Assembly: GCA_038736825.1 (NCBI GenBank)
Contig: JAVYME010000016.1
Location: forward strand, 1-26,320
Direction: 5' to 3'
DNA: 26,320 nucleotides
Source of the DNA: Candidatus Iainarchaeum sp.
GTDB taxonomy: Archaea > Iainarchaeota > Iainarchaeia > Iainarchaeales > DTGL01
Each line of letters begins with the position of its first letter. Positions within the stretch are counted from its first letter, which is position 1. The position numbers and the translations under genes were made by a program. The notes beneath the pieces were generated by a model that searched no databases, was not told where the DNA came from, and was given only the letters and a program-made list of their open reading frames with translations. Positions 1 to 18,984 of this stretch are shown here, in pieces.

Positions 1-1399
1 AGGCTTTTCTGATGCGGTTTTTTGCTTTTTCTGTTTTTGCTATGGCAAGCCATGAGCGCTTGCACTGTGGTTTTTTTGCCAAGCGGACTTCCACTATGTC
101 TCCGCTTTCCAGCTTTCGGTGCATTGGAGCGTTTTTTCCATTCACAATTGCGCTCAAAAATTTGTCGCCTATGTCTGAGTGTATTGCGTATGCAAAGTCT
201 AGGGCGGTTGCGCCTTCTGGAAGGGTGATTATTTCTTTTTTTGGGGTTAAAACGAATATTTCTGGTTCTCCAAAGACTAGTTTGAGGGAGCGCATTGTTT
301 CGCTTGTCTTTTTTATTTTTCTCTGCCATTCTATGAATTGTTTTACCCATGACAGTTTTTGGTCGAAATCTTGGTCTTTTTCTATTTGTTTGTAGCGCCA
401 GTGTGCTGCCAGCCCTTCTTCTGCATTGCGGTGCATTTCCATTGTGCGAATTTGCACTTCTGCTTTGCGTCCATGCCAGTCTATGACTGTGTGGATTGAC
501 TGGTAATTGTTTTTTTTGGGGTTTGCTATGTAGTCATCATATTCCCCTAATGGTTTGAATTTTAAGTGGACTAATCCGGCGGCACGATAGCAGTCTTCTA
601 CAGTGTTGCATATTATTCTTGCTCCGTAAAGGTCCCCTATTTCTCCAAATTTTTTGCCTTGAACAAACATTTTCCGGTAAATGCTGTTAAAGTTTTTTGC
701 TCTTGCTGAAACGCTTGCACTGATTTTTTCATTTTCAAGGAGTTTGGTGAGTTCCAGTTCAAGCTTTTTGGCGTTCAGTTCTCTTTGCGCTCTTTTTTCA
801 CCAACAAGCGACTTTATTTTTTCGTATTCTTTTGGCTTAAAGTATTTTAGGGCTAAATCCTGCAATTCCCATTCCATTTCATAGAGCCCCAGCTTGTGGG
901 CTATTGGGGCATAAACATCTCGGACAAGTTCTGCTAACGCGTTTTGTTTCTCTGCTGGGCGCTGGTCTATTTTTCTCATTTTGTCAAGCTGTGAGGCAAT
1001 CTCTACAAACAGGCTTCTGAAGTCCTTTGCTATTCCCATTATGACCTTGGATAGCTGTTGGTTTTCCAGTTCTCCATAATTGTTGTTTTTTACGCTTTTA
1101 AGCCTTGCAATGTCGTCCACGAGCCCAGTGATTTCTGAGCCAAGTTCCCTTTCCATTTGTGTTTTTTTTTCTGGAGTGTCAAAAAGGATTTCGTGAGCCA
1201 GAGCGGCTGCAATTGTGCTTGCATCAAATCCAAGTTTTGCAAGTATGAATGCTGTGTTTGCTTGGTGTTCTTGTTGTTCTCTGTTTTTGCTGTGCTGCAA
1301 AGAGAACTTGAATGCTTTTTCCACTAATGCAAAATCGCTTTTATTTAAGTGTTTGCATTGCGCTTTAAGTTCAGTGAACGACTGGTTTTTGTATTGCAT
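1..1399 (-). CDS. Long RelA/SpoT homologue (RSH), (p)ppGpp synthetase; N-terminal 466 aa visible (degenerate HD domain + synthetase domain + TGS domain); 3' part runs off the left window edge
   Basis: Absent from the ORF track because it has no stop in the window. The minus strand from ATG 1399-1397 is open to position 1; I checked every codon for stops. Translation starts MQYKNQSFTELKAQCKHLNKSDFALVEKAF. Synthetase motifs: RAKNFNSIYRKM, GDLYGARIIC, EYDDYIANPKKNNYQSIHTVI, EVQIRTMEMHRNAEEGLAAHWRYK. TGS motif: IFVLTPKKEIITLPEGATALDFAYAIHSDIGDKFLSAIVNGK. The HD region reads LAHEILFDT where canonical enzymes have LLHDxxEDT. Confidence 0.88.
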   Translation of the reverse strand, partial: MQYKNQSFTELKAQCKHLNKSDFALVEKAFKFSLQHSKNREQQEHQANTAFILAKLGFDASTIAAALAHEILFDTPEKKTQMERELGSEITGLVDDIARLKSVKNNNYGELENQQLSKVIMGIAKDFRSLFVEIASQLDKMRKIDQRPAEKQNALAELVRDVYAPIAHKLGLYEMEWELQDLALKYFKPKEYEKIKSLVGEKRAQRELNAKKLELELTKLLENEKISASVSARAKNFNSIYRKMFVQGKKFGEIGDLYGARIICNTVEDCYRAAGLVHLKFKPLGEYDDYIANPKKNNYQSIHTVIDWHGRKAEVQIRTMEMHRNAEEGLAAHWRYKQIEKDQDFDQKLSWVKQFIEWQRKIKKTSETMRSLKLVFGEPEIFVLTPKKEIITLPEGATALDFAYAIHSDIGDKFLSAIVNGKNAPMHRKLESGDIVEVRLAKKPQCKRSWLAIAKTEKAKNRIRKA

Positions 1400-1422
1400 A
1401 ATAATATTTTTGCTGGAAGTTG

Positions 1423-1434
1423 AATAAATATATG
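1423..1434 (-). promoter_or_regulatory. Putative TATA box for the RSH gene (minus-strand CATATATTTATT, about 25-35 nt upstream of the ATG; short or no leader)
   Basis: A/T-rich TATA-like element at archaeal promoter distance in the 139-nt divergent intergenic region. Confidence 0.35.
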
Positions 1435-1484
1435 CTTTCCTTGCAAGTCCTGAAATCCTTTTAACAGGCTGACTAAGGTTATGG

Positions 1485-1538: not shown

Positions 1539-2213
1539 ATGAAGTTTCCGATTCTATTCATTAACTTTAAGTGCTATGAAGAGGCAACAGACAAAAAAGC
1601 AGTTGCTTTGGCAAAAAAAGCAGCATTTGCATCAAAAAAAACAAATTCAACGGTTGCCTTGGTGGTTCAAGCAACAGACATCAGGCTAGTGTCAAGCACA
1701 GTCACAATTCCAGTTTTTGCACAACACTTGGATCCAATAGAATACGGTTCTCACACAGGCCACATACTTCCTGAAGCAGTAAGGGCTGCTGGAGCCAAAG
1801 GCACTGTTTTGAATCACGCTGAAAACAAGCAAGAGAATTCTTTTCTGGAAAAGGCAATAGTTCGAGCTCACTCTGTTGGTCTTAAGGCAATGGTTTGCGC
1901 TGAAAGCACAGAGCGAGCGAGAGCGATTGCTGCCTTTTCTGAAAAACCGGATTTTATTGCAATAGAGCCCCCAGAACTAATAGGCGGCGACATTTCAGTT
2001 TCAACAGCCAAGCCAAGCCTTATAACTGACACCGTAATAGAGGTTAAAAAAATTGCACCAATTCCAGTAATAACTGGTGCTGGAATAAAGAATTCAGAAG
2101 ATGTCAGGATTGCCCTTGAACTTGGAACAAGCGGGGTTTTTGTTGCTTCAGGCATTGTCAAGGCGTCAGACCAAAAAAAGGCGATTTTAGAGTTGTTAAA
2201 GGGATTCAAATAG
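1539..2213 (+). CDS. tpiA: Triosephosphate isomerase, short archaeal type (224 aa)
   Basis: FINFKCYEE N-terminus, LNHAENK, IAIEPPELIGG and TGAGI motifs. The ~225 aa length is typical of archaeal TIM. Confidence 0.92.
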   Translation: MKFPILFINFKCYEEATDKKAVALAKKAAFASKKTNSTVALVVQATDIRLVSSTVTIPVFAQHLDPIEYGSHTGHILPEAVRAAGAKGTVLNHAENKQENSFLEKAIVRAHSVGLKAMVCAESTERARAIAAFSEKPDFIAIEPPELIGGDISVSTAKPSLITDTVIEVKKIAPIPVITGAGIKNSEDVRIALELGTSGVFVASGIVKASDQKKAILELLKGFK

Positions 2214-2245
2214 TTTTTTTGTTTAATTTGGGAAGGTGTTTTGTG

Positions 2246-3400
2246 ATGGAGCGCACAAGCGTTGAAGAAATAATGGATTCAAATTTTTTAAAGATTGGTG
2301 CAGAAGAGCGGGTTTCAAAGCTTTTCGGGCTTTTGAGTTCTGCCAAAAAACACCACGCGGTTGTGTTTGATTCCAACGGCGAATATGTTGGAATCACTTC
2401 TACAAGGGAAATGCTTCGCAGGCAAGCGGATTTTTCTCAAATGAAGGTAAGAAGCATTACGGACGAGAACAGGCCGCGCTTGACTAGGGACATGTCTTTA
2501 ATGAAAGCAGCTGAGTTAATGTATGTTTCAGACAGCCGCATTCTGCCAGTTATCGAGGAAAACAAAGTTTTTGGCGTTGTTTCAGCCAATGCAATAATCA
2601 AACAGGCTGCAGAGCGTTCACCGATTGCTTCAAAGAGAGCTAGAGATATTGCTTCAAAAAACCCAGTGGTTTTAAAGCAAACCGAATCAATTGGCAAGGC
2701 AATAACTTTAATGCGCGATAAAAACATAAAACGAGTGTTGGTGTCAGACAAAAAAGGCAATATTGTTGGCATTCTTTCATTACAGGAATTGATTGAAAAG
2801 CACTTGGTTCACGCCACTAGTGAACGGCTTCCCTTTGTTTCTGGCGCCAGAGGGCATTCCTCTGAAAGGGCTACTGCCTTAAAAATGCCGATTTCCAGTG
2901 AAATGTCCTCTTTTTTCATCACAGTCAAGCCAGACCAAAGAGTGGGGGCACTCCTTTCCGATATTGAGGGCGGCCGTGCCATAGTGCTTGTTGAAAAGGG
3001 CAAAGCAGTTGGAATTATCACCAGAAGAGATCTCTTGGAAGCCATTGTGAAGACTGGGGCTGTTGAGAGAAACATTCAGGTAGCCAATGTGCCAGCCCTA
3101 GATGAAATTGACAAGGCAAAAGTGGATAGCACAATCAATGCCTCTTATGACAGAGTCAAGAAAACGCTTGGAATGCCTTACTTTCTTTTAGTGCATTTCA
3201 AACAACATAAAGAGGCCGGTGCAAGAGTGAAGCACTCTGTTCATATTCGGGCTTCTGCTCCTGGAATGAATTTTAAGGCTGAAGCAACTTCTTGGAATGT
3301 GATCACCTCTTTACAGGATGCCTTAAGCGAGATTGAGAGGGAGATAAGGAAAGCCATTGGCAAAAAGCGCAAGAGTTTTAGAAAGGCAAGAGCCAAGTAA
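2246..3400 (+). CDS. Four-CBS-domain protein with a C-terminal HPF/RaiA (ribosome hibernation factor, S30AE)-like domain (384 aa from ATG 2246; the ORF opens at TTG 2219)
   Basis: Four CBS-like repeats, e.g. VVFDSNGEYVGITSTREML, LPVIEENKVFGVVSANAII, VLVSDKKGNIVGILSLQELI, VLVEKGKAVGIITRRDLL. The C-terminus (nt 3071-3397) has a beta-alpha-beta-beta-beta-alpha pattern resembling E. coli HPF: NIQVANV..DEIDKAKVDSTINASYDRVKK..YFLLVHFKQHK..KHSVHIRASAPG..NFKAEATSWN..VITSLQDALSEIEREIRKAIGKKRK. Confidence 0.8.
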   Translation: MERTSVEEIMDSNFLKIGAEERVSKLFGLLSSAKKHHAVVFDSNGEYVGITSTREMLRRQADFSQMKVRSITDENRPRLTRDMSLMKAAELMYVSDSRILPVIEENKVFGVVSANAIIKQAAERSPIASKRARDIASKNPVVLKQTESIGKAITLMRDKNIKRVLVSDKKGNIVGILSLQELIEKHLVHATSERLPFVSGARGHSSERATALKMPISSEMSSFFITVKPDQRVGALLSDIEGGRAIVLVEKGKAVGIITRRDLLEAIVKTGAVERNIQVANVPALDEIDKAKVDSTINASYDRVKKTLGMPYFLLVHFKQHKEAGARVKHSVHIRASAPGMNFKAEATSWNVITSLQDALSEIEREIRKAIGKKRKSFRKARAK

Positions 3401-3432: not shown

Positions 3433-3441
3433 TTTTTTTTT
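3433..3441 (+). terminator. T9 tract, likely archaeal oligo-T terminator of the tpiA/CBS operon
   Basis: GCGCTTTTTTTTT lies 30 nt after the stop codon. Confidence 0.4.
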
Positions 3442-3465: not shown

Positions 3466-3740
3466 GTGTGGGCGCGCCAAGGAATCGATTCTGCTTAAAA
3501 GGACAGAGTGGCCCACTGCATTCCTCGCTTCCGTTTCCCTCAAAGCATTTCACTTAAAGGCCACCGTTGCTTTCTTCCGAACCTGGCGGGTTCACCCTTA
3601 AGCAAAACCTAAGAGGACAGAAGTTCCTTGTAGTGCAATGGCTCCGGCCTTCCAAGCGAAAACCTTTCCCAAGGCTTCAGCTCCAGCGTGAAGCGGATTT
3701 CCGGTTACAGGGAACCGCTGCCTCCCCAGCCTAGCCCACA
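3466..3740 (-). ncRNA. Signal recognition particle RNA (archaeal 7S RNA, ~275 nt; ends approximate)
   Basis: The minus strand begins GUGGGCUAGGCUGGGGAGGCAGCGGUUCCCUGUAACCGGAAAUCCGC (archaeal Alu-domain-like 5' end). It contains the helix-8 signature GGGUGAACCCGCCAGGUUCGGAAGAAAGCAACGGUGGCC (plus coordinates 3559-3597). The 3' end GCGCGCCCACAC pairs with the 5' GUGGGC and is followed by UUUUU. This is a GC-rich island in an AT-rich context. Confidence 0.9.
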
Positions 3741-3760
3741 AATAATTTAGGGCGAGAGAA

Positions 3761-4250: not shown

Positions 4251-5435
4251 TTATTTTAGCACTCTTAATTCTTTTCCGATTTTTTCGAATTTTTCTAGGG
4301 CTATGTTCAAGTCTTCTTTTGAGTGTGCTGCTGAAACCATTGTTCTAATGCGGGCTTTGTCTCTTGCCACCATTGGATAAATTATGGGCAAAGCGAAAAC
4401 GCCTTCTTTGAAGAGCTTGCTGCTGAATTCTACTGCAATTGCGCTTTCCCCGAGCATTACTGGAGTTATTGGTGTTTCGCTTTCACCTGTGTCAAACCCA
4501 AGCCCTTTCAGTTTCTTTTTAAAGTATGCAGTGTTTTTCCACAGTTTTTTCACCAAGGAATCGTTTTTTTCAAGCAATTGCAGCGAGGCAATGCATGCTG
4601 CCACTGTTGCCGGCGGCGATGAACCGCTTAAAAGCCAGGTTCTGCTCTTGTTGTATGCAAAATCGCATATTTCTTTTTTTCCGCAGAGATAGCCGCCCAT
4701 TACGCCGAAGGCTTTGCTGAATGTGCCCATTTCAAACTCGATTTTTCCCTTTAAATTGAAGTGGTGGACTATCCCTTTTCCTTTTTTGCCTAAAACGCCA
4801 TCCCCGTGTGCGTCATCAACGTAAACCATTGCATTGTGTTCGTGGGCTATTTTTTCTATTTTGTCCAAGGGCGCTATGTCGCCATCCATGCTGAAAACGC
4901 CGTCTGTAACCACGAGTTTTTTTCCATAATTTTTTTTGTCGCTTTCTTCCAATAATTCTTTTAGTTTTTCCGTGTTTTTGTGTGGAAATATTTGCCTTTC
5001 AGCCTTGCTCAGCCGCATGCCGTCTATTATGCTTCCATGGTTTAATTCATCGCTTAATATTAGGTCTCCTTCTAACATCATTGCCGGAATCATTCCAGCA
5101 TTGACTGCAAAACCTGTTTGATAGTATGTTGCTGCCTCGGTTTCCTTGAATTTTGCTATTTCTTTTTCCAGTTTCAAGTGCAATTCCATGGTGCCAGCGA
5201 TTGCTCTGACCGAGCCAGAGCCAGCGCCATATTTTTTGACTGCCATAATGGCTGCTTTTTTTAGCACGGGGTGATTGCTTAAGCCAAGATAATTGTTTGA
5301 GCATAAAATTATGGCTTTTTTTCCATCTATTTTGCCTCTTGCCCCTGAAGCGCTTTGAAGGCTTCTAAGATTCCATTCCAGTTTTTTTTCTCTCAATTCT
5401 TTCATTGCATTTGAAAAGAATTCCTCTCCAACCAT
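4251..5435 (-). CDS. kbl: 2-amino-3-ketobutyrate CoA ligase (glycine C-acetyltransferase), PLP-dependent
   Basis: Alpha-oxoamine synthase family: SNNYLGLSNHP, DELNHGSIIDG, VDDAHGDGVLG, and PLP-lysine motif GTFSKAFG. Divergently paired with tdh, which favours Kbl over BioF. Confidence 0.88.
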   Translation of the reverse strand: MVGEEFFSNAMKELREKKLEWNLRSLQSASGARGKIDGKKAIILCSNNYLGLSNHPVLKKAAIMAVKKYGAGSGSVRAIAGTMELHLKLEKEIAKFKETEAATYYQTGFAVNAGMIPAMMLEGDLILSDELNHGSIIDGMRLSKAERQIFPHKNTEKLKELLEESDKKNYGKKLVVTDGVFSMDGDIAPLDKIEKIAHEHNAMVYVDDAHGDGVLGKKGKGIVHHFNLKGKIEFEMGTFSKAFGVMGGYLCGKKEICDFAYNKSRTWLLSGSSPPATVAACIASLQLLEKNDSLVKKLWKNTAYFKKKLKGLGFDTGESETPITPVMLGESAIAVEFSSKLFKEGVFALPIIYPMVARDKARIRTMVSAAHSKEDLNIALEKFEKIGKELRVLK

Positions 5436-5510: not shown

Positions 5511-6545
5511 ATGAAAGTTGTTTTAAAATCAAAACCAGGCAAGGGGCTTGAACTCTCAAAAGTGGAAAACCCTTTTCCAAAAAAAGGCGAGCTTTTGGTT
5601 AAAGTAATGGCTGCCGGCATTTGTGGAACCGACTTGCACATTTATGAGTGGAATGAATGGGCTCAGTCAAGGATTAAGCCCCCACTGGTTGTGGGACACG
5701 AGGTTGCCGGCAAAATAGTTGAATTGGGTGAAGGGGTTTCTGGTTTTGAAATTGGAGACCTTGTTTCAGTTGAAACCCATGTTTTTTGCGGCAAATGCTT
5801 TCAATGCCTTTCAGGCAACAAGCACATTTGCGAGAAAATGAAGATTTTTGGAGTTGACATGAACGGGGTTTTTGCAGAATACGCTGTTGTTCCAGCCCAA
5901 AATGCCTGGAAAAACCCAAAGAAAATGAAACCAGAGATTGCTGCAATACAAGAACCCTTTGGAAACGCAGTTCACTCGGTTTTTGCTGTTTCAGACAATT
6001 TCAAGGATTCCACTGTTCTGATAACCGGTGCCGGCCCCATTGGGTGTTTTGCTGTGGGCATTTTAAAGGCAGAAGGCGCAAAAAAAGTGATTGTTTCCGA
6101 TTTGAATGATTTTCGCCTTAAACTGGCTCAAAAAATGGGAGCAGATGTTTTGGTGAACGCTGAAAGCGAAAACCTTGTTGAACGCGTTTTGAGTGAAACC
6201 AATGGGCGCGGTGCCGATTTTTTTATTGAAATGGCTGGAAGCGGCAAAGCATTAGTGGACGGCTTTAAGGCTTTAAGGCCTGGCGGGAGGGTTTCAGTTT
6301 TAGGGGTTTTCGGAAAACCAGTTCAATTGGATGTAACCAACAATATTGTTTTCAAGTATGCAACGGTTTACGGCATCAACGGCAGGCTTATTTTTGACAC
6401 TTGGAAGAAAACCAGCGAGCTTCTTGGAAGAGGCCTTGTTGACCCTTCACCGGTAATCACTCACTCTTTGAAGTTTGAGGATTTTGAAAAGGGTTTTTCT
6501 TTGCTTGAACAGGGCATGGCTGGCAAAGTTGTTTTGACCTTTTGA
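5511..6545 (+). CDS. tdh: L-threonine 3-dehydrogenase (zinc-dependent MDR family)
   Basis: ICGTDLHIYEWNEWAQSRIKPPLVVGHEVAG, structural-zinc cysteines CGKCFQCLSGNKHIC, EPFGNAVH, GAGPIG Rossmann motif. Confidence 0.92.
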   Translation: MKVVLKSKPGKGLELSKVENPFPKKGELLVKVMAAGICGTDLHIYEWNEWAQSRIKPPLVVGHEVAGKIVELGEGVSGFEIGDLVSVETHVFCGKCFQCLSGNKHICEKMKIFGVDMNGVFAEYAVVPAQNAWKNPKKMKPEIAAIQEPFGNAVHSVFAVSDNFKDSTVLITGAGPIGCFAVGILKAEGAKKVIVSDLNDFRLKLAQKMGADVLVNAESENLVERVLSETNGRGADFFIEMAGSGKALVDGFKALRPGGRVSVLGVFGKPVQLDVTNNIVFKYATVYGINGRLIFDTWKKTSELLGRGLVDPSPVITHSLKFEDFEKGFSLLEQGMAGKVVLTF

Positions 6546-6554
6546 TTCTAATTT

Positions 6555-9500
6555 TTAATCTTTGCTTTTGTCTTTCACGTCTTCAATTCCCTTTTCAGTC
6601 ACTTGGTATAATGCTTCGCCGTCTGGAAGGCTTGGAGAGTCCACCAGTTTTGCTATTCTTTTTTCACCCTTGCTTTTCCTCAAGTACAAGCGAGTTTTGC
6701 TGTTGTGTACAACGAAACCATTCGCAATGTAGTTTTCTGTCAGAGGAACGCTCAAATCGTAAAGTGGCTGGTTATTTGTCATTTTTCTGATGGTTCTCAC
6801 TTTTTCAAATTTTACCTCTCCGTGGAGAATTGCCATTAAAAACTCTTTTTTATTTTTTAAGCTGTCTTCCTTTATTTCCTTGCCTTCGAGGGCTAGGGCT
6901 ATTTTTTCACCCTCTTGCAGGGTTATGTGCCTGTAATTTCGATAAGGAATTGGTTTTTTCTCTTTCTCGAAGGTTTTTGCTAAGAATTGCCATACCGCGC
7001 TTCTCTCCATTGGAATTATCCTTTTAGCTCTCTCTGGTTTGAAAGTGCAAATCCATTTTTGCAGTTTCTGGTTTTTGTCTGGAGCGCTCACCCCTATTAA
7101 TTCTCCATATTTAACAACGTTTTCGCTGAACAAGTCAAGCGAGTATGCTGGCTTGTTGTATCTAGTGAGCCTGGAACCAATTCCGAACCGCAATAATAGC
7201 AATTGAATAAATTGTAATATTTTTTTGTCGTTTTGGGCTATTGTTATCCTTCTTATCTTGCTGTCAATTGAACCTTCAGCGTCAACAAATCCTTTTATGA
7301 AGGCTTTCACTGTATCATCTTCTGATTTTGGCACAAGAACGACATAGTTTTTTTTAATCCATTGCATTAACTCCGTGATTTCCCTGCTGTTTATTCTCAT
7401 CCTAAAAGCATTTTTGCCATTGATTTTTGAAATTCGGCAATCACAGTTGAAAACTATCTTGAAGAGTTTTTGGTATTCTTTGAGCACTTCTTCTCTTGAG
7501 TCCTTGAATTCAATGTTCCTTTTTCCAATAAAACCGTCGCCAAGCATATAACCCGTTATTTGAGCAAGTTCTTTGGTGAAGAATTCTGGCATTCTCAGCA
7601 CCTTGTGTTTGTTTGAAGCGAGTGGCATGATGTTTTCCAAAATTTCTTCGCTTTGGCTCAATTCAGCGATCTTTTCCAGATTGCTTTTTGCTGTAGGACA
7701 ACCTTGATTCAAAACCCGCCTGAGCTGTCTTGGGGTTATGTCAAGGCAATGGCAGATTTCACCCCGGGTTTGTCCAATTTGGTTTAGGCATTGCTTGACT
7801 AGTTGGGCTCCATTTTTGCTGACCATTACAATTTGCACTGGCTCTTTGGCAGGTATTTTTTGGAGGGTGCCAAGCACTCGTATGCTGCCAGCATGCATCA
7901 AATAATCCCCTTTCCTTATTTGGCTGGCTTTAACTTCTTTAAGGCCAAATTTGCAGAGTTTGAAGAACCTGTGTTCTGGTGAAACAGTTATCTGGTGCCC
8001 GGTATCAATTTCATATACTGTTTTTATGTCATGTCTGACAGACCTTTGCATGGCCTGAGCGTTTACTATTTGCAGTTTATTTCTGTTGTCGACTGCTAAA
8101 AGGTTCCATTCGCTTAATTCTGCTATTGCCTGTATTGCGCCGCTGTTTGTTTGGACAAGGCTGTCGCCTGCAAGGCAAGCGTGTCCCACGATGTTGCCTC
8201 CAACTGGCGCTGTTGGGTCTCCAAACAAAATATCCGGTCTTTCCATTACTTGGTTTGTGACTAGGACAACCACGTTGTACATTTCCGCTATTTTCATTAG
8301 TTGTCGCATGTGTTTGTTGAGTTTTTGTTGTCTTTCAGCGAGTAAACCCCGCCCTATGTATTCTGACCTGAATTGTGAGGTGAGCGAGTCAACTATTACC
8401 AGTTTTATGTTTTTTTCTTTTATGATGTTTTCTGCTTTTTCAGCTAAAAGCATTTGGTGGTCTGCATTGTATGCTCTTGCCACATAAATGTTTTTTAGTG
8501 CTTTTTCTGGGTCAAGCCCTTTGGCTTTGGCTATTGCCATTATTCTTTCAGGCCTAAAGCTTGATTCTGAATCTATGTATAGCACGTTTCCGTTCAAGCC
8601 GCCTTTTTCTGGCGGAAGCTGTGCCATAACACACATTTGGAAGCACCATTGAGTGTTGTGTAGGAATATTGGCTTGTTGCCGCCTATAAAACTGTGTGTT
8701 TTTGGCACTACAAGGTCATACACCCAGTCATTGTATTGAATTTCTTTTTTTGTTGTGATTTTTTCCCATTGTATTTGTCCGTTTGCTAGGGTGATGAGAG
8801 TGTTTAAGTCTTTTTTGAGTTCTTTGTCTTCAAGCAGGCCATCTGTTTCTTTTTTTAGAACTGTGGCAATCTTTTCTGCAGTTGCACTTGACATGTGCCT
8901 TGTTATATAGTTTTGGAATGTTGATCTCTTTAGGCAGAGTTTTTCCCTGATTTCTGTTGTGCGAATTGGCATTACTGAGAGTGCTTTCATGACTTTACTG
9001 GGTGTTGGGTTTTCAAGCAGCCTTCTGGCTTCTTTTATTTCTCTTATTCTGGTTTTAAAGAATCCAAGCATGTCATTGAGGGTTTTTTCTGTCACGCGTT
9101 CCATGTGTGGGTGTTTTCCAATAAAGGTTACAAATGGGTTTTTGTAGCCTTTTTTGTACATGGCTTGCTTGCTCCACTTGTTGAAGTGCCTTCTTGAACC
9201 GCTTAGTTTTGAGTAAATGCGCCTGTAAAGTGGTTCAATGACTTTGATTGGAATGCAATATTTTGTTGAAAAATTTTTTTCTCCCGCTATTTTTTGGTTT
9301 TTTATGGTTTCACTCATTATTTTTTCTATTTTTTTCTTAGATTCAGTGTCTGTTATGTAAAGCACATAGTATTTTTTGCCTTGAGCGATTTTTTCTCTTA
9401 AAGTGACTTGAATGCCTAGGATTGCAAACAGGTATCCAAGTTGTTCGCTGAGCTTTTTTGATTTTGTGCACATGGAAACTGTCTTTGATATGTGTCCATC

Positions 9501-10526
9501 GCCTTCTAGATAGCCTTTCAAGAATGCTTCAATTGTGGCTTTTTGGCTTTGCATTATTTCTTCTGGGACAAATTTGTTGCCAGCAGTGCAATGTGCCAGT
9601 TCTTTAAGAAACTCTCTTGTCGGCTTTTTTAGTATTATTAGTCCTTTTTTCTTTACAAGCCTTGGCTTATACTTGAATTTTTTTTCAATGTAAGTCAAAA
9701 CTGTTTTCTGGATTTTTTCATTGTAATTTGTAATGCTCAACGGGTTTCCACAACCTTCTGCGACAAACAAGCCTAAAAAGTAGGCATCTTGTTTATCAAT
9801 CGTGTGCGAGCTTGGCGTTCTAATTATTTTTGGTGTTCCAATAAAGTCGCCTTCTTTAAGGAGCTCGGTGGATTTCCATTGGATTCCGTTTTCTGTCAAT
9901 GTTAGGAGGGGGTGAAAGCCAGTTAGTTTTATTATGCCGCCCCTTTCTGTTTCAATAAGTTGCAGGGTTTCCACTTTTTCTTTATACAGGTATTGTGCAT
10001 GGCTTTTCTCTATTTTTCCATACTTATTTATTCCAATTACTTTTACGGGTTTTTTCAGTTCAGCAATATAGCCGGAATCGAATTTTCTTTCGTTTACTGC
10101 ATACTTTTTGTAAAAATCCTCAATGGGTTCAAGGTGTGGTTTGTTAGGGTTCAAGTAGAATATGTTGGTGTCGCCTGAAATGCATTTCCCGCTCGCCATC
10201 TTGCCGTACACTTCTGTAATGCTTTGGGTTTCAAGTCCTCCGCCAAGCAATTCATCTAATTCTTTGCTGCCAGTGCGTATGCGCCCGATTTTTTCTCTTC
10301 TTTTTTGGATTGAATCTGCTGTTTCAAAGCCCATTTCGAGTGCATCCCTTGCTGCTTTTATTGCTTTTTCTGCTGTTTTTTCTCCAATTCCAGCCACTTC
10401 TGTTAATTCCATTGGGGATGCTACTGCAATGCTTTCAATGCTTCGATAGTTTGCTTTGAATAGTTTTTCTGCGGCTTGCGGGCCTATTCCGGGTAAATCG
10501 CTAACTTCTTTTATTTCTCCAGCCAT
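6555..10526 (-). CDS. radA: DNA repair and recombination protein RadA precursor with two inteins (1323 aa; predicted spliced RadA 321 aa)
   Basis: N-terminal HhH ([12 protein letters not shown]). Walker A GKMASGK|T is interrupted after the Lys. Walker B LVIVDS. C-terminal [26 protein letters not shown]. Extein segments are aa 1-114, 625-783 and 1276-1323. Confidence 0.95.
6702..8177 (-). mobile_element. RadA intein 2 (492 aa, aa 784-1275) with LAGLIDADG homing endonuclease; inserted at GGNIVGHA|SKTRLYL
   Basis: Block A CLAGDSLV. Block [20 protein letters not shown] motifs [12 protein letters not shown] and [13 protein letters not shown]. Terminal [21 protein letters not shown] followed by +1 Ser. 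Confidence 0.9.
8655..10184 (-). mobile_element. RadA intein 1 (510 aa, aa 115-624) with LAGLIDADG homing endonuclease; inserted in the ATPase P-loop (GKMASGK|TQ)
   Basis: Block [12 protein letters not shown]. Block [19 protein letters not shown] motifs [13 protein letters not shown] and [13 protein letters not shown]. Terminal [23 protein letters not shown] followed by +1 Thr. Confidence 0.9.
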
Positions 10527-13551: not shown

Positions 13552-14196
13552 ATGAGATTGCCATTGTTCAACAGGCTGAAAAATCGCTTGCACAAGGATA
13601 CAGCCCTCTTACAGGACGAGATTGTGGATATTGTCTATTCGGTTGAGCCATCAGCGGTTTTACATGGCGGTACCGCTGTCTGGCGCTGTTATTCAAGCAA
13701 TCGCTTTTCTGAAGACTTGGATTTTTACCTTGGCTCAGGAAAGGCCTTCAAGGAAAAATTTTTGCCCGTTATTGAATCCCGCAATCTCTCGTTGCAAAAA
13801 TTCAAGCAAACAAAGACAACAATTTTTTCCAAAATTGCAATTGGCAATGCTGAAGTTCGGTTTGAGGCAGCACTGAGAAAACCCGATAAAATTGTTGTTG
13901 CAAGCTATGAAAAGGTTGATGGAACCTTTTTGAGTATTTTCACGCTTGCACCTGAAGATTTGTTGCTTGAAAAAATTTCTGCGTTTGAAAACAGGCGTTT
14001 GGCTCGCGACCTTTATGATATTGTTTCCCTGCTTCCATTTGTGAGGGATGAAACTGCAGTTAAAAGCAAAGCACTTGCCTTTGTTGAGTCTGCCGAAAAG
14101 CCTGTTGATGAAAAGGCGTTAAAGGCACTGGTTTTTTCTGGTGCAATTCCATCTTTTGAACAGGCTATTGCCATTATAAAGAGGCGGTTCAAGTGA
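13552..14196 (+). CDS. Nucleotidyltransferase, AbiEii/AbiGii toxin family (DUF1814/COG2253-like), short form (214 aa)
   Basis: Pol-beta NTase motif LHGGTAVWRCYSSNRFSEDLDFYL. C-terminal family motif RRLARDLYDIVSLL. Confidence 0.8.
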   Translation: MRLPLFNRLKNRLHKDTALLQDEIVDIVYSVEPSAVLHGGTAVWRCYSSNRFSEDLDFYLGSGKAFKEKFLPVIESRNLSLQKFKQTKTTIFSKIAIGNAEVRFEAALRKPDKIVVASYEKVDGTFLSIFTLAPEDLLLEKISAFENRRLARDLYDIVSLLPFVRDETAVKSKALAFVESAEKPVDEKALKALVFSGAIPSFEQAIAIIKRRFK

Positions 14197-14777
14197 AATA
14201 TGCTTTAACTGTGAGGGAGCATTTTTCAAAGCAAGCGGTTTTCAGCGTTCGCGACATTTCAATCTTTTTTTCAACTAGAGGGATTTCCAAAGGGTATGCG
14301 CGTCTTTTTCTTCATAATCTTTTGAAAAAAGGCGAAATAGTTCGTATTTCCAGGGGTGTTTATTCTTTTGAAAGGGATTCCTTGCTTTGGGGGTTTGCTT
14401 TCTCGCCTTTCTATTATGGGTTGCAGCAAGCCCTTTCTTTGCAGAATTTGTGGGAGCAAGAGAGCATTCCAGTGATAATTACACCGCGCAAAATCCGAAC
14501 TGGTTTGAGAGAGATTGGCAGCGAGAGAATTCTTGTAAGGCGGATTGACAGAAAGCTTTTCTTTGGCTTTGAAATGCTGCCTTATTATGGTCGCTTTGTT
14601 CCTGTTTCGTGCCTTGAAAAAACCCTTTTAGATTTTTTTTATTTTAGGGAGCCATTGCCAAAAAACACATTGAAGGGTTTATTGCAAAAGGCGGACAGAA
14701 AAAATTTGAATTCTTTGCTTAAAAAATACCCTGTCCATTTCAGGAAATCATTTGAAAAGAAAATTGCAAGTGTTTAG
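14193..14777 (+). CDS. AbiEi-like antitoxin / wHTH transcriptional regulator (COG5340-like), 194 aa
   Basis: N-terminal wHTH FSVRDISIFF..GYARLFLHNLLKKGEIVRISRGVYSF. C-terminal VPVSCLEKTLLDFFYF. The GTG start overlaps the upstream TGA (GTGA). Confidence 0.72.
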   Translation: MKYALTVREHFSKQAVFSVRDISIFFSTRGISKGYARLFLHNLLKKGEIVRISRGVYSFERDSLLWGFAFSPFYYGLQQALSLQNLWEQESIPVIITPRKIRTGLREIGSERILVRRIDRKLFFGFEMLPYYGRFVPVSCLEKTLLDFFYFREPLPKNTLKGLLQKADRKNLNSLLKKYPVHFRKSFEKKIASV

Positions 14778-17040: not shown

Positions 17041-18984
17041 GTGGAATTAATTGGCTGGGAAGTGGAAGCAATGGGTTTGGCTGAGTGGAGCGAGCAAAAG
17101 GGCTTTTTTGCAAAAAGCACTCCAAAAAAAGCTGCCACCACTGATTCTGAAGCAGAATGGAATAAAATTGAACAGGCTCTTTTGCGAAGGAAAGAGCAAG
17201 CCAATTCAATGGAAGAACCAGACAGCGCGCTTATTTCTCTCATAAACCAGCTTGATTCAGAAATAAAATCCAAAAGGCAGGGAACTGCCAGCGAGCAGTC
17301 GTTGCAGCATTCCAAAGAATTGCTGGAAATGATTGATGAGCGCTTGCATGGCACAGCCTGGCCTGTAAAGGAATTGCAAAAAAAATTAAAGAAGCCGGCT
17401 TTGAGTGAAATGGAGGAAATTGTTCCTGTGGCTGAAAAAAAACCGGAGGAAACCAAAATGGGCTCAAGTTTTGATGTCAAAAAAGAAGAGGAAAGCATAA
17501 GGGCTGCCATGGAGGCAAAATTGAAGGCAGCCGAGCAAGAGCAAGCAAAACAGTCAAGCAAGACTGCAATCGAGCAACCTTCAAATATTGAAACCCATAA
17601 AAGCAATGCTTCAATTGTTGAGGATGACTTGTTTGAACCTGAAGAGCCTCCAAAGGATGCTCCGGAACCATTAGATGAAGCAGAAACAGAGGTTTTCGAA
17701 GAAGAATTTGAAGAAGTGGAGGAAAAGCCAGAGGAAAAGCCAAAACCTGAAAAAAAAGAAAAAAGAGAGGAAAAGCCAAAAAAAGAAACCTTGCGAGATT
17801 TCAAGGGCAAAATAGATGTTGAAAAAGCAGAATTTCTTTACAAAGCCTCAGTAAACCAATTGCTTAAAGCACAACTAGAAAATGGGGCAATTATTCCAAC
17901 AACAAGCGAGAAAAGCTATTTGAATGTTTATCCGCGCGATCTAGCCTTTTGCGCTCTAGCACTTGTAAAAGCTGAAAGGTTTGATGAAGCCAAAAAGGCT
18001 TTAGAGTTTGCCTTTAAATACCAAGACAGAAAAACAGGCAGTTTTCCGCAAAGATGGGATGAGGCTGGCAACAATACTGGGTATAAGCCAGTGCAGCCTG
18101 ATGCTGCTGCCTTAGTTCTTTATGCTTTTGCAGAATATGTTTTGGACAAAAACAACACTGATTTTGCAGAAATGAATTGGGACAGAATTGAGAAAACAGT
18201 TGATTTCTTGAATTCAAAAATTGTTTCTGAAAAAGACTTGGTTTTTGCTCCATCCTCAATCCATGAATTTCCTCCAATGGAGCAAGGGTACGAGATTTGG
18301 GCAAACGCAACCTGTTGTGCAGCATTCAAAAACCTTTCCAGGGTTGCAGAAAAAATAAGGGTTGACTATGCTCCGCTCAGCAAAGAGAATGTCTTAAAGG
18401 ACGCCATCCTGCAATACATGTGGAATTCCAGAAAACAGTGCTTTGTGAAAGCAATAAGGATTGGCGAGTCAAGCTCAGTAATGCTTTGGCCTGATGCCTC
18501 TCCCTTAGCACTGTCCTTTTTTGATGTTTTTCCCACAAACGACAAAAAAATGGCTTCAACAGTCAAACTAATTGAGGAAAAACTGTGGCATAAATCCTTT
18601 GGGGGAATTTCCAAGTTTGGCTTTGTTGAAGGCATAGAGAAAGGCGGCTTTGGAGCAAGCCCATTCTTCACACTCTTGTTGTCAGACTATTTCATTAAAA
18701 CAGGGGACAGAGAAAAAGCCGAAAAGTTTTTGGGCTGGGTGATAAGCATTGGCCAGTCAGGCTCTCTCCCAGAACACATTGCCACCAAAGAAGACTTTGA
18801 AGCATTTGCATCAGATTTCAGTGATGCTGGTCTTCTAAATCGGAACACAATGAAGCAAATAAATGCTGCAAGGGAAAGCCAAGAATTCAAGCAAGGAGTT
18901 GCCCGCATAACCGAGCCATTTTCAATGGCGCACGCAGCATTCATAATTGTTTGGAAAAACTATAAGGAAAAATTCCTAAAGTGA
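17041..18984 (+). CDS. Glycoside hydrolase family 15 (glucoamylase/glucodextranase-like) with a ~250-aa acidic, K/E-rich disordered N-terminal extension
   Basis: The C-terminal ~385 aa has (alpha/alpha)6 GH15-like motifs: ENGAIIPTTSEKSYLNVYPRDLAFCALAL, PVQPDAAALVLYAF, YEIWANATC, GGISKF, SLPEHI. The ORF opens at GTG 17041; ATG 17071 (MGLAEW) is an equally plausible start. Confidence 0.78.
   Translation: MELIGWEVEAMGLAEWSEQKGFFAKSTPKKAATTDSEAEWNKIEQALLRRKEQANSMEEPDSALISLINQLDSEIKSKRQGTASEQSLQHSKELLEMIDERLHGTAWPVKELQKKLKKPALSEMEEIVPVAEKKPEETKMGSSFDVKKEEESIRAAMEAKLKAAEQEQAKQSSKTAIEQPSNIETHKSNASIVEDDLFEPEEPPKDAPEPLDEAETEVFEEEFEEVEEKPEEKPKPEKKEKREEKPKKETLRDFKGKIDVEKAEFLYKASVNQLLKAQLENGAIIPTTSEKSYLNVYPRDLAFCALALVKAERFDEAKKALEFAFKYQDRKTGSFPQRWDEAGNNTGYKPVQPDAAALVLYAFAEYVLDKNNTDFAEMNWDRIEKTVDFLNSKIVSEKDLVFAPSSIHEFPPMEQGYEIWANATCCAAFKNLSRVAEKIRVDYAPLSKENVLKDAILQYMWNSRKQCFVKAIRIGESSSVMLWPDASPLALSFFDVFPTNDKKMASTVKLIEEKLWHKSFGGISKFGFVEGIEKGGFGASPFFTLLLSDYFIKTGDREKAEKFLGWVISIGQSGSLPEHIATKEDFEAFASDFSDAGLLNRNTMKQINAARESQEFKQGVARITEPFSMAHAAFIIVWKNYKEKFLK

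Follow-up and report, generated by a model that had tools for sequence, protein, structure and literature searches.

An Iainarchaeota CBS-HPF fusion protein that is probably an orthologue of the ribosome hibernation factor HibA

The locus

The window, by which we mean the whole 26,320-nucleotide stretch of DNA that was analysed, confirms an archaeal host by its genes for RadA, RPA, GGGP synthase, S19e and aIF6 and an archaeal SRP RNA. The host is a metagenome-assembled genome (MAG) of the Iainarchaeota (Diapherotrites, DPANN), and relatives of the gene considered here are found in Ca. Iainarchaeum MAGs. The gene and its surroundings contain the following features:

2222-2229, forward strand: A/T-rich TTTAATTT, which could be a TATA-like element, read from the sequence
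2230-2238, forward strand: Shine-Dalgarno-like GGGAAGGTG, 7 nt 5' of the ATG, read from the sequence
2246-3400, forward strand: probable HibA/AHA-type gene (four CBS domains plus an HPF/RaiA-like domain) of 384 aa, with its TAA at 3398-3400, taken from the list of open reading frames
2246-3052, forward strand: N-terminal CBS tetrad, two Bateman modules (aa 1-269), from Pfam, the AF2 model and motifs
2801-2887, forward strand: long CBS3 loop HLVHATSERLPFVSGARGHSSERATALKM (aa ~186-214), the predicted equivalent of the 'PTC loop' or 'loop 3', from pLDDT and alignment
3053-3340, forward strand: HPF/RaiA-like domain core, from PF02482, AF2 topology, Foldseek, profile searches and both archaeal insertions
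3341-3397, forward strand: basic C-terminal tail EIRKAIGKKRKSFRKARAK that continues the last helix, net charge +9, from composition and the AF2 helix 352-383
3433-3441, forward strand: T9 run, 33 nt past the stop codon and read from the sequence, a possible archaeal oligo-T terminator
ending at 3466, convergent: SRP RNA gene (Rfam RF01857, 140 bits)

The ATG at 2246 is likely the start codon of the 384-aa frame. It is favoured by the homologues, 8 of 12 of which open with MERTSVEE or MEQTSVE, and a start at the alternative TTG, at position 2219, would lengthen the protein by only 9 aa. A TIM gene lies upstream and stops at 2213; the 384-aa gene may share its transcript or have a promoter of its own. 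A functional tie to the adjoining SRP RNA gene was considered and rejected, since the two genes converge and are neighbours in close relatives only.

The encoded protein is very basic, with a pI of 10.0 and a net charge of +22 (+11 in each module). NCBI has an identical protein under the title 'MAG: CBS domain-containing protein [Candidatus Diapherotrites archaeon]', and close relatives have already been labelled 'ribosome-associated translation inhibitor RaiA' by the JGI pipeline; because the public name of the protein itself still mentions only the CBS domains, re-annotation is possible. The original prediction for this gene held that four CBS domains are fused to an HPF/RaiA-like domain in an archaeon, and a profile match, the predicted fold and a structural search all agree with it. 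The further suggestion that the architecture was uncharacterised has been overtaken by publications of 2025-2026, in which CBS-HPF proteins are described as HibA (Hib; PAB0961/Q9UYR4 of P. abyssi and TERMP_00697 of T. barophilus; Madru et al., Nat Commun 2026, PMC13324472) and as AHA (HVO_2384) of H. volcanii, which behaves like HibA (PMC12934967).

The C-terminal domain

The final ~115 aa of the protein are not CBS. A check against the Pfam profile PF02482 (Ribosomal_S30AE), proposed with the original prediction, gave a match for a 117-aa piece at 23.8 bits (E=7.6e-5) against a gathering score of 23.7, a borderline score (23.6-23.8 vs 23.7 bits); the same profile is matched by 11 of the 12 relatives, with a best E of 1.3e-5. 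The NCBIfam model TIGR00741 (yfiA) is matched with E=2e-4 and 21.8 bits, far below its equivalog cutoff of 40.9. Judged by sequence, the C-terminal domain is a member of the S30AE superfamily, yet no bacterial-type HPF/YfiA equivalog.

The AF2 model of the 384-aa protein (pLDDT 79-82) gives this region a strand at 277-280, a helix at 290-308, three strands at 313-324, 327-338 and 341-349, and a last helix at 352-383. When the domain model was compared with the PDB by Foldseek, the top 35 matches were all structures of HPF, RaiA (YfiA, protein Y), pY, MPY or RafH, the best with E=2.4e-5 and TM scores of 0.63/0.73, and the first unrelated fold, a dsRBD, appeared only at rank 36 (E=0.014). This ranking led to the rejection of a dsRBD or ACT/ferredoxin-like identity for the domain. 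An ACT/ferredoxin-like top match had been named beforehand as an outcome that would speak against an HPF-like domain; it did not appear, nor did any other such outcome.

Sequence comparisons point the same way. A profile search with the C-terminal domain matches Listeria HPF (E=4.5e-4), and a domain-only profile matches residues 283-373 of P. abyssi HibA (E=9e-5) and, in addition, about 15 HPFs from bacteria. An hhalign comparison of a 12-sequence C-terminal profile with the single E. coli HPF sequence aligned the last helix only, with a probability of 1.3%; a one-sequence template is uninformative, and so the Pfam and NCBIfam HMMs and the profile searches against the PDB were used instead. 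The register against E. coli HPF that had been proposed by eye was recovered in all four of its pairings when both sequences were placed on a profile built from 81 archaeal domains: FLLVHFKQHK pairs with VYVVLKVEK, KHSVHIRASAPG with SDATLHVNGG, NFKAEATSWN with EIHASAEGQD, and VITSLQDALSEIEREIRK with MYAAIDGLIDKLARQLTK, so that the strands and the terminal helix of the two proteins are in the same register. The resemblance to HPF is well beyond chance.

Similarity to the bacterial and chloroplast HPF, RaiA (YfiA, protein Y), long-HPF N-terminal domain and pY factors is thus detectable in sequence, with Pfam at threshold. The archaeal protein differs from bacterial HPF in its fused CBS tetrad and in two insertions, with a beta2-beta3 hairpin that is 5 residues longer. 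In bacterial long HPF a C-terminal dimerisation domain drives 100S formation. The 384-aa protein, in contrast, lacks that domain; no additional domain was found past the HPF core, and the chain stops 19 residues later, in a basic helix. In published trees the archaeal HPF domains form a clade apart from the bacterial ones (PMC12934967).

The CBS module

The N-terminal part contains four CBS stretches (Pfam PF00571, E=1.6e-34), with the strand-helix motifs GITSTRE, GVVSANA, GILSLQE and GIITRRD. The CBS tetrad that is required of HibA and AHA is seen both in the four Pfam stretches and in the structural matches of the AF2 model, among which SriA (9znf_4) is best for the CBS module at E=6e-19, AMPK-gamma occupies ranks 2-5 for the full model at E of about 4e-17 to 5e-17, and Dri matches at E=5e-16; the MJ1225 tetrad is also among the matches, and all four proteins have E <=1e-15. 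The full-length Foldseek search covered structures to 2026-04-08, before the release of the 9SR* entries of HibA, and returned only CBS tetrads; HibA was recovered by a sequence-based search of the PDB.

The motif of CBS4, GIITRRD, has the canonical form and does not vary among relatives. The CBS3 motif, GILSLQE, differs from that of HibA in having Glu in place of the canonical, ribose-binding Asp, and the position is variable within the clade, so that at most one canonical nucleotide site, that of CBS4, is clearly intact. AHA, in contrast, holds two AMP molecules, at sites 3 and 4. Judging from the homologues, an adenine nucleotide, preferably AMP, would most likely be bound by the CBS module at the CBS3/CBS4 interface. 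The module of HibA binds AMP > ADP > ATP and leaves GTP and GMP unbound (PMC13324472). The earlier proposal of (p)ppGpp as a ligand was rejected for this reason: a guanine-nucleotide alarmone is an unlikely ligand when the HibA module binds no guanine nucleotides.

An extended CBS3 loop is a hallmark of HibA and AHA, and such a loop is present here. It comprises about 25 residues (aa 189-213), contains the sole segment of the AF2 model with pLDDT<50 (189-207), and aligns with residues 190-207 of P. abyssi HibA. In HibA the loop tip, E201-K202, touches nucleotides of the PTC (PMC13324472); the aligned residues here are E207-R208, and the E-K/R pair is conserved in 10 of 12 relatives. The CBS module itself is basic (+11, pI 9.8), which is what an rRNA binder would show.

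Several other archaeal proteins bind ribosomes through CBS tetrads. Dri of Pyrobaculum, SriA-D of Methanosarcina acetivorans and ARC-P/ARC-A of Methanolobus belong to this group but have no HPF/RaiA domain; Dri, built as a double CBS module, likewise puts a CBS loop into the PTC, whereas Sri and ARC are separate proteins that act in tandem. SriA matches the 384-aa protein in sequence (E=2.9e-13), and the similarity to SriA and Dri is limited to aa 6-269. The HPF domain sets the protein apart from this CBS-only class, for which a largely mutually exclusive distribution with HibA among genomes has been reported, and ARC, as a distinct two-protein CBS system, was rejected as the same family. Eukaryotic AMPK gamma shares the four-CBS fold and the adenine-nucleotide sites at ~15% identity, but is a kinase regulatory subunit without a ribosome-binding domain.

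Homology to HibA

Structures of HibA are available as PDB entries 9SR9-9SRF and 9T7H, of which 9SR9 is the HibA-ATP complex (PMC13324472). The top full-length sequence match in the PDB (phmmer) is HibA itself: P. abyssi chain 9sr9_H is matched collinearly over its full length, residues 5-370 against 5-371, with E=1e-24 and 25% identity. The second-best full-length match is a 406-aa CBS protein, 9l96_a (E=4e-22). The domain boundaries correspond as well, since P. abyssi HibA is divided into CBS 1-269 and HPF 270-392 (PMC13324472) and the present protein into CBS 1-269 and HPF 270-384. The two proteins share the CBS3 'PTC loop', the long last helix and the basic C-terminal tail. AHA, which is the HibA family under a second name and combines an AMPK-gamma-like CBS tetrad with an HPF domain, has the same long terminal helix, longer than that of E. 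coli HPF (PMC12934967), and its loop 3 reaches the PTC.

The HPF domain of HibA has two archaeal-specific insertions, and both are present here. The first, SAL283-285 in HibA, reads PAL283-285 here, with the P and L invariant among relatives. The second, in the beta-hairpin, is KFRGVHL324-330 in HibA and AGARV-K324-329 here, where the HPFs of Listeria and E. coli have a gap of 4-5 residues.

The likeness to HibA is nonetheless one of low identity, 25% over the whole protein and 21% within the HPF domain. Of the 40 alignable C-terminal residues that touch 16S rRNA or r-proteins in the P. abyssi complex, the present protein shares 7 and has similar residues at 15, counts that depend on a 21%-identity pairwise alignment that may be off locally. 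In that alignment HibA R290, R292, R336 and R366 stay K or R, whereas other rRNA-contacting arginines are, with the same local uncertainty, replaced (R299 by A, R326 by A, R347 by E and R362 by S); the HPF domain retains a net charge of +11. The hosts also differ, a mesophilic-looking DPANN MAG of 41% GC as against the hyperthermophiles that carry HibA.

Function and alternative interpretations

We conclude that the gene is very probably an Iainarchaeota (DPANN) orthologue of the HibA (Hib/AHA) ribosome hibernation factor. Given that the CBS-HPF architecture was already in print, the protein would add one more ordinary member to an already known family, and the function of that family has been established by cryo-EM, by inhibition of translation in vitro and by the phenotypes of deletion strains (PMC13324472, PMC12934967). 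In HibA the HPF domain fills the 30S subunit's channel for mRNA and tRNA and the CBS module sits on the 50S; the protein inhibits in vitro translation and keeps 70S ribosomes in stationary phase (PMC13324472). We infer by homology that the 384-aa protein binds ribosomes, inhibits translation and senses nucleotides.

The mechanism modelled on its homologues begins with translation that has been stalled by energy or nutrient stress. The basic HPF/RaiA-like domain would then bind the small subunit in the decoding centre and the mRNA/tRNA channel, blocking the A and P sites, with the Lys/Arg tail extending toward the mRNA exit channel. The CBS tetrad would lie on the large subunit, where the long CBS3 loop could enter the peptidyl-transferase centre. 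Because a single polypeptide would bridge both subunits, the vacant 70S ribosome would be kept assembled, inactive and undegraded until regrowth.

The original prediction had described a ligand-gated ribosome silencer. The silencing half of that description is borne out by the experiments on the homologues, while gating by nucleotides bound to the CBS module is still a hypothesis, even for HibA, whose binding to the ribosome shows no visible change under AMP or ATP (PMC13324472).

A different division of labour is conceivable, in which the protein is a true HPF factor whose main target is the free 30S subunit, in the manner of a RaiA/pY-type or anti-association factor, and the CBS module serves only as an energy-dependent switch or sequestration handle and not for 50S/PTC binding. 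HibA-bound 30S particles with a disordered CBS module do exist (PMC13324472), the N-terminal residues that make contact in the PTC state show poor conservation (6 of 27 identical), and close stand-alone relatives with up to 56-58% identity to the domain of the 384-aa protein demonstrate that the HPF-like domain can exist without CBS. However, the CBS3 loop is kept together with its E-K/R tip, R157 is conserved, the basic character of the CBS module speaks against action on the 30S alone, purifying selection on the CBS module is as strong as on the HPF domain, and the module binds the 50S subunit in both characterised homologues, HibA and AHA. We regard this alternative as very unlikely.

A highly improbable reading is that the protein uses its CBS tetrad to regulate a different process, for instance transcription in the manner of HhpR or CM-3, or as a partner in replication or recombination, and that its HPF-like fold does not bind ribosomes. 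The stand-alone CBS tetrads HhpR and CM-3 do serve as transcription factors, and the CBS region has weak NCBIfam matches to HhpR (E=3e-10), CbpB, PrdR and others; these matches involve only the CBS repeats and fall far under the cutoffs, at 39.7 bits against 520 for HhpR (NF053603), which places the protein outside the HhpR/CM-3 class. Thermococcales HibA has been pulled down with replication and recombination proteins, and RadA and RPA are encoded a few kb from the 384-aa gene, but on the opposite strand, so that the proximity reflects synteny common to close relatives and no operon. The resemblance of the C-terminal domain to S30AE/HPF proteins and to the HibA domain extends beyond fold to sequence, and the full-length match to HibA argues in the same direction.

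Distribution and selection

An exhaustive HMMER search with the C-terminal domain yielded 201 cluster representatives, whereas word-indexed searches with the domain or its profile alone returned only 1-3 matches, because the index requires shared 5-mers. Two length classes were evident among 163 domain proteins: 66 measure ~350-400 aa and carry the domain at their very C-terminal end, and 83 have <=140 aa and stand alone. These classes agree with the published split into AHA-type and HPF-only proteins, both of which are present across archaeal phyla (PMC12934967). The HibA architecture has been reported in ~47% of archaeal genomes (publications of 2025-2026), and the Iainarchaeota are included in the genome database of the published HibA survey, according to its genome lists.

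The 384-aa architecture is found without frameshifts, and with conserved neighbours, in at least 5 independent assemblies. Purifying selection acts on both modules, with omega values of 0.06 and 0.08 in the unsaturated pair of relatives L002/L003, the only pair that is quantitatively usable because dS is saturated between the window and its relatives; the HPF domain is conserved at least as strongly as the CBS module. An annotation or assembly artefact, in the form of a chimeric frame or a decaying gene with a non-functional C-terminal part, might be suspected from the metagenomic source and from a relative labelled partial (P0035, 573 aa) that resembles a purD-fragment/HibA fusion, but its probability is negligible and it is effectively refuted by the independent assemblies with intact frame and neighbours, the low omega in both parts and an architecture common to 66 cluster representatives. 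With the HibA hallmarks intact and purifying selection acting in reduced genomes, ribosome hibernation appears to be retained even there. The result is mostly confirmatory; the locus adds a clean full-length DPANN (Iainarchaeota) representative to the family, and the real architecture had been correctly recognised by a reader working without search tools.

The neighbouring RelA-like gene

The 384-aa gene is part of a block that is conserved in the Iainarchaeal clade, in which the TIM gene lies between it and a divergently transcribed, bacterial-type long RelA/SpoT homologue. The hydrolase motifs of this homologue are degenerate (HD to HE, DRLHN to SQLDK), the EXDD motif is present and the synthetase motifs are intact; by these motifs it appears to be a (p)ppGpp synthetase of the monofunctional RelA type. 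To our knowledge, (p)ppGpp signalling has been demonstrated in no archaeon. An alarmone-based stringent response in these DPANN archaea, coupled to HibA-mediated ribosome hibernation if the two genes are functionally linked, is an unlikely but conceivable arrangement. A long RelA/SpoT homologue next to a hibernation gene is unusual for an archaeon, and this neighbour could matter more than the CBS-HPF fusion itself.

Identification of a C-terminal HPF/RaiA-like domain

The reading frame at 2246-3400 (+) is intact, with 384 codons and a TAA stop. The ATG at 2246 is preferred as start over an in-frame TTG at 2219, which would lengthen the protein by nine residues, because the N-terminus MERTSVEE or MEQTSVE recurs in 8 of 12 homologues and the SD-like sequence GGGAAGGTG lies 7 nt 5' of this ATG. 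An identical protein is listed at NCBI as 'MAG: CBS domain-containing protein [Candidatus Diapherotrites archaeon]', and the nearest genomic relatives (63-70% identity) come from MAGs of Candidatus Iainarchaeum, which belongs to the phylum Iainarchaeota in the kingdom Nanobdellati (DPANN). The contig is clearly archaeal, since it carries an archaeal SRP RNA and genes for RadA, RPA, GGGP synthase (PcrB), ribosomal protein S19e and aIF6.

The protein contains four CBS stretches (Pfam, E=1.6e-34), followed by about 115 C-terminal residues that are not CBS. The original prediction had assigned this segment by eye to the HPF/RaiA family, and profile and structure searches bear the assignment out. 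The isolated domain matched PF02482 (Ribosomal_S30AE) at 23.6-23.8 bits (E about 8e-5), right at the gathering threshold of 23.7, and 11 of 12 relatives matched the same profile independently (best E=1.3e-5). Its sole match in NCBIfam was TIGR00741 (HPF/YfiA; E=2e-4, far under the equivalog cutoff). AlphaFold2 models built on a 12-sequence alignment (pLDDT 79 for the full protein, 82 for the domain) predict a strand at 277-280, a helix at 290-308, strands at 313-324, 327-338 and 341-349, and a last helix at 352-383. When the domain model was compared with the PDB by Foldseek, ranks 1-35 were all HPF, RaiA/YfiA/protein Y, chloroplast pY, mycobacterial MPY/RafH, or ribosome entries containing them. 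The top match was Listeria HPF (E=2.4e-5, TM 0.63/0.73), and the first unrelated fold, a dsRBD, appeared at rank 36. The findings that would have spoken against an HPF-like domain, namely a different fold with no S30AE profile match, or an unrelated ACT/ferredoxin-like domain as top structural match, did not appear.

The finer details of the assignment were also recovered. A profile of 81 archaeal domains, to which both E. coli HPF (from NC_000913) and the domain of the window protein were aligned, reproduced exactly the strand-by-strand and helix register drawn by eye, with E. coli HPF showing a gap of 5 residues at the beta2-beta3 hairpin. [quoted passage not shown]

A further PDB chain, 9i5v_14 (401 aa, 'Ribosome-associated translation inhibitor RaiA'), has a C-terminal HPF-like domain at 309-400 (E=0.05 with the archaeal domain profile). 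Its N-terminal part may differ from that of the window protein, since the chain was not among the matches of the full-length window protein in the PDB.

Relationship to HibA and AHA

By sequence, the full-length protein matched 9sr9_H best in the PDB (E=1e-24, residues 5-370 aligned with 5-371); this chain has 392 aa and bears the label 'Dehydrogenase'. Entry 9SR9 is 'HibA-ATP' (Madru et al., Nat Commun 2026, PMC13324472). HibA of P. abyssi (PAB0961) consists of four CBS domains (1-269) and a C-terminal HPF/RaiA-like domain (270-392), and was present on 76% of 70S particles in stressed cells. The C-terminal domain was placed in the 30S subunit's channel for mRNA and tRNA, and the CBS module in three positions on the 50S subunit: PTC, uL5 and L1 stalk. 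HibA inhibited translation in vitro, and deletion of hibA in T. barophilus lengthened the lag after stationary phase and lowered the 70S pool by about 60% (all PMC13324472). AHA of H. volcanii, described in an independent preprint, belongs to the same family; it carries two AMP at CBS3/CBS4 and a loop that extends to the PTC (PMC12934967).

The window protein is only 25% identical to P. abyssi HibA overall (CBS module 27%, HPF domain 21%), but the domain boundaries agree one for one. The long CBS3 loop (aa ~189-213), the sole low-confidence segment of the AlphaFold2 model, aligns with the HibA PTC loop (190-207). The tip of the HibA loop, E201-K202, touches the A-loop and A2834 nucleotides (PMC13324472), and corresponds to E207-R208 in the window protein, a pair kept in 10 of 12 relatives. 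Both 'archaeal-specific insertions' of HibA, as delimited by a published deletion construct (delta-283SAL285 and 324KFRGVHL330; PMC13324472), are present, as PAL283-285 and AGARV-K324-329, and so is the long last helix, with a terminal basic tail of +9. Of 40 ribosome contacts in the HibA HPF domain, 7 are identical and 15 similar in a pairwise alignment that is uncertain at 21% identity; in this same uncertain alignment a K or R stands opposite R290, R292, R336 and R366 but not opposite R299, R326, R347 and R362.

Every defining feature of HibA/AHA that could be tested clearly from sequence or model is found in the window protein, which is very probably a member of this family. The original reading of a CBS-HPF fusion therefore stands as to the domains and, by homology, their function; its claim of novelty does not, the architecture having been published already. 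The window protein, which comes from Iainarchaeota, adds a new and uncharacterised member; that phylum is probably covered by the HibA survey, since it was included in the genome sets of that paper. The interest of the case rests on the correct blind rediscovery and on the adjacent gene for a RelA-like protein, rather than on the fusion itself.

Several other known systems were ruled out. CBS-only factors (Dri, Sri, ARC) are excluded by the HPF domain, and long HPF by the missing dimerisation domain. The protein is not a member of the HhpR-type regulators, and it scores below the cutoff for the bacterial HPF/YfiA equivalog and has extra insertions.

Distribution of the domain

When 1.84 billion cluster representatives were searched exhaustively with the domain by HMMER, 201 proteins matched at E<=1e-3. 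Length classes were taken from 163 sequences, comprising 150 listed of the 201 representatives plus earlier matches. The HibA type, of at least 340 aa, accounted for 66, with the domain starting at ~244-278 and ending 0-16 residues from the C-terminus. A further 83 were HPF/RaiA-like proteins standing alone, about 97-140 aa long (e.g. P0015, P0016 and P0020), and the remaining 14, of intermediate length, were mostly fragments. The 66/83 split is the dichotomy of HibA and 'HPF/RaiA-like' proteins described in both papers, and the AHA survey of archaea counted 3,160 AHA-type and 926 HPF-only proteins (PMC12934967). The stand-alone form has been reported mostly in DPANN and Nitrososphaerales, and the published idea is that it derives from HibA through loss of the CBS module. 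This fits the closest relatives of the window domain beyond its own clade among the matches listed, which are stand-alone proteins of 105-107 aa (56-58% identity). Close homologues carry the JGI pipeline label 'predicted transcriptional regulator/ribosome-associated translation inhibitor RaiA'. In one related protein, P0035 (573 aa, labelled partial, from a Ca. Diapherotrites MAG), a fragment of PurD (GAR synthetase) apparently precedes a HibA-type protein with its HPF domain at 452-561, either as a genuine fusion or because two genes were called as one.

Selection and proposed mechanism

Purifying selection acts on both modules: in the comparison of relatives L002 and L003, the one pair whose dS is not saturated, omega is 0.06 (CBS module) and 0.08 (HPF domain). 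Identity to the window protein across the clade is 72-80% in the HPF domain and 55-69% in the CBS module, the former being no less conserved than the latter. With a pI of 10.0 and a net charge of +22, +11 per module, the protein is strongly basic, as would be expected if both halves touch rRNA.

By analogy with HibA and AHA, the window protein would bind ribosomes, inhibit translation and bind nucleotides. When energy or nutrients are limiting, the HPF-like domain would fill the 30S decoding/mRNA channel and shut out mRNA and the A and P tRNAs, the CBS tetrad would lie on the 50S subunit with the CBS3 loop able to enter the PTC, and one chain would staple both subunits into an inactive, protected 70S. 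The CBS3/CBS4 interface would hold an adenine nucleotide, preferably AMP. Each of these steps is probable, somewhat less so than family membership.

The canonical Thr...Asp of the CBS strand-helix motifs occurs in CBS4 only (GIITRRD, invariant), and CBS3 has a Glu at a position that varies within the clade. These motifs would predict one robust adenine-nucleotide site, like the 1:1 stoichiometry measured for HibA (PMC13324472). [quoted passage not shown] The suggestion that (p)ppGpp might be a direct CBS ligand is unlikely to hold, since the HibA CBS module binds neither GTP nor GMP (PMC13324472).

Genomic neighborhood

Features of the window
1-1471 (-), RelA/SpoT homologue (RSH), running off the window start
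1539-2213 (+), triosephosphate isomerase (TIM)
2246-3400 (+), hibA-like gene
3466-3741 (-), archaeal SRP RNA (RF01857, 140 bits)
between SRP RNA and the next gene, small membrane protein
4251-5435 (-), KBL/AONS-like class I/II aminotransferase-fold enzyme
5511-6545 (+), Zn-dependent alcohol/threonine dehydrogenase-like (Zn-ADH/TDH-like) enzyme
6555-10526 (-), RadA with two inteins, 1323 codons
after RadA (-), RPA
after RPA, MBL hydrolase, then GGGP synthase
13552-14196 (+), AbiEii nucleotidyltransferase toxin
14193-14777 (+), AbiEi antitoxin, overlapping the toxin ORF by 4 nt
17041-18984 (+), ORF of 647 codons
19371-24120 (+), translation/protein-targeting cluster: S19e, aIF6, prefoldin subunit, FtsY-like GTPase

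The order RSH(-)/TIM(+)/hibA(+) recurs in two other assemblies, at loci L003 and L006 (HibA identity 70% and 59%), and the TIM-hibA adjacency also in two more, at L007 and L008; this adjacency is absent from L009, which encodes a 35%-identical relative. The shared order is weak evidence for functional linkage, since the synteny is found only among fairly close relatives. The convergent SRP RNA directly 3' of the hibA-like gene is kept in three Iainarchaeum MAGs, at L002 (2167-2441), L003 (5171-5445) and L004 (2628-2902), and probably reflects plain synteny. Between TIM and hibA lies a spacer of 32 nt that, with its TTTAATTT element and oligo-T run, may hold a promoter for hibA itself; a T9 run follows the hibA stop codon.

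The RSH gene, divergent from TIM-hibA, encodes a long, bacterial-type protein with HD_4, RelA_SpoT and TGS domains in the window. Its full-length orthologues (L003 1318-3228 and L006 2362-4221, both (-); 619-636 aa) have HD_4, RelA_SpoT, TGS, RIS and ACT domains, and match mycobacterial Rel at E=9e-105 and TIGR00691 at 493 bits (cutoff 499). In alignment the hydrolase motifs are degenerate (HD to HE, ED to FD, ADRLHN to ASQLDK) and the synthetase motifs intact, and the RXKD/EXDD position reads EYDD, the RelA-type signature according to established RSH literature. Judged by these motifs, the Iainarchaeal RSH looks RelA-like. Atkinson et al. (2011) reported long RSHs to be absent from archaea, and a 2021 study stated that (p)ppGpp had by then been detected in no archaeon.

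Other genes on the contig

The KBL-like and Zn-ADH/TDH-like genes are divergent, and the pair, which is kept in L003, suggests threonine degradation. The window RadA is interrupted by inteins (Intein_splicing, LAGLIDADG_3 and Hom_end matches), and its orthologues in L006 and L007 are intein-free, at 316 aa. AbiEii/AbiEi is a type IV TA/abortive-infection system, found here in a DPANN archaeon. The 647-codon ORF had no Pfam match at E<=1e-4. In the translation/protein-targeting cluster, the FtsY-like SRP receptor GTPase (568 aa) has a long N-terminal extension, and aIF6 is a ribosome anti-association factor that was observed on the 50S subunit in the HibA study (PMC13324472).
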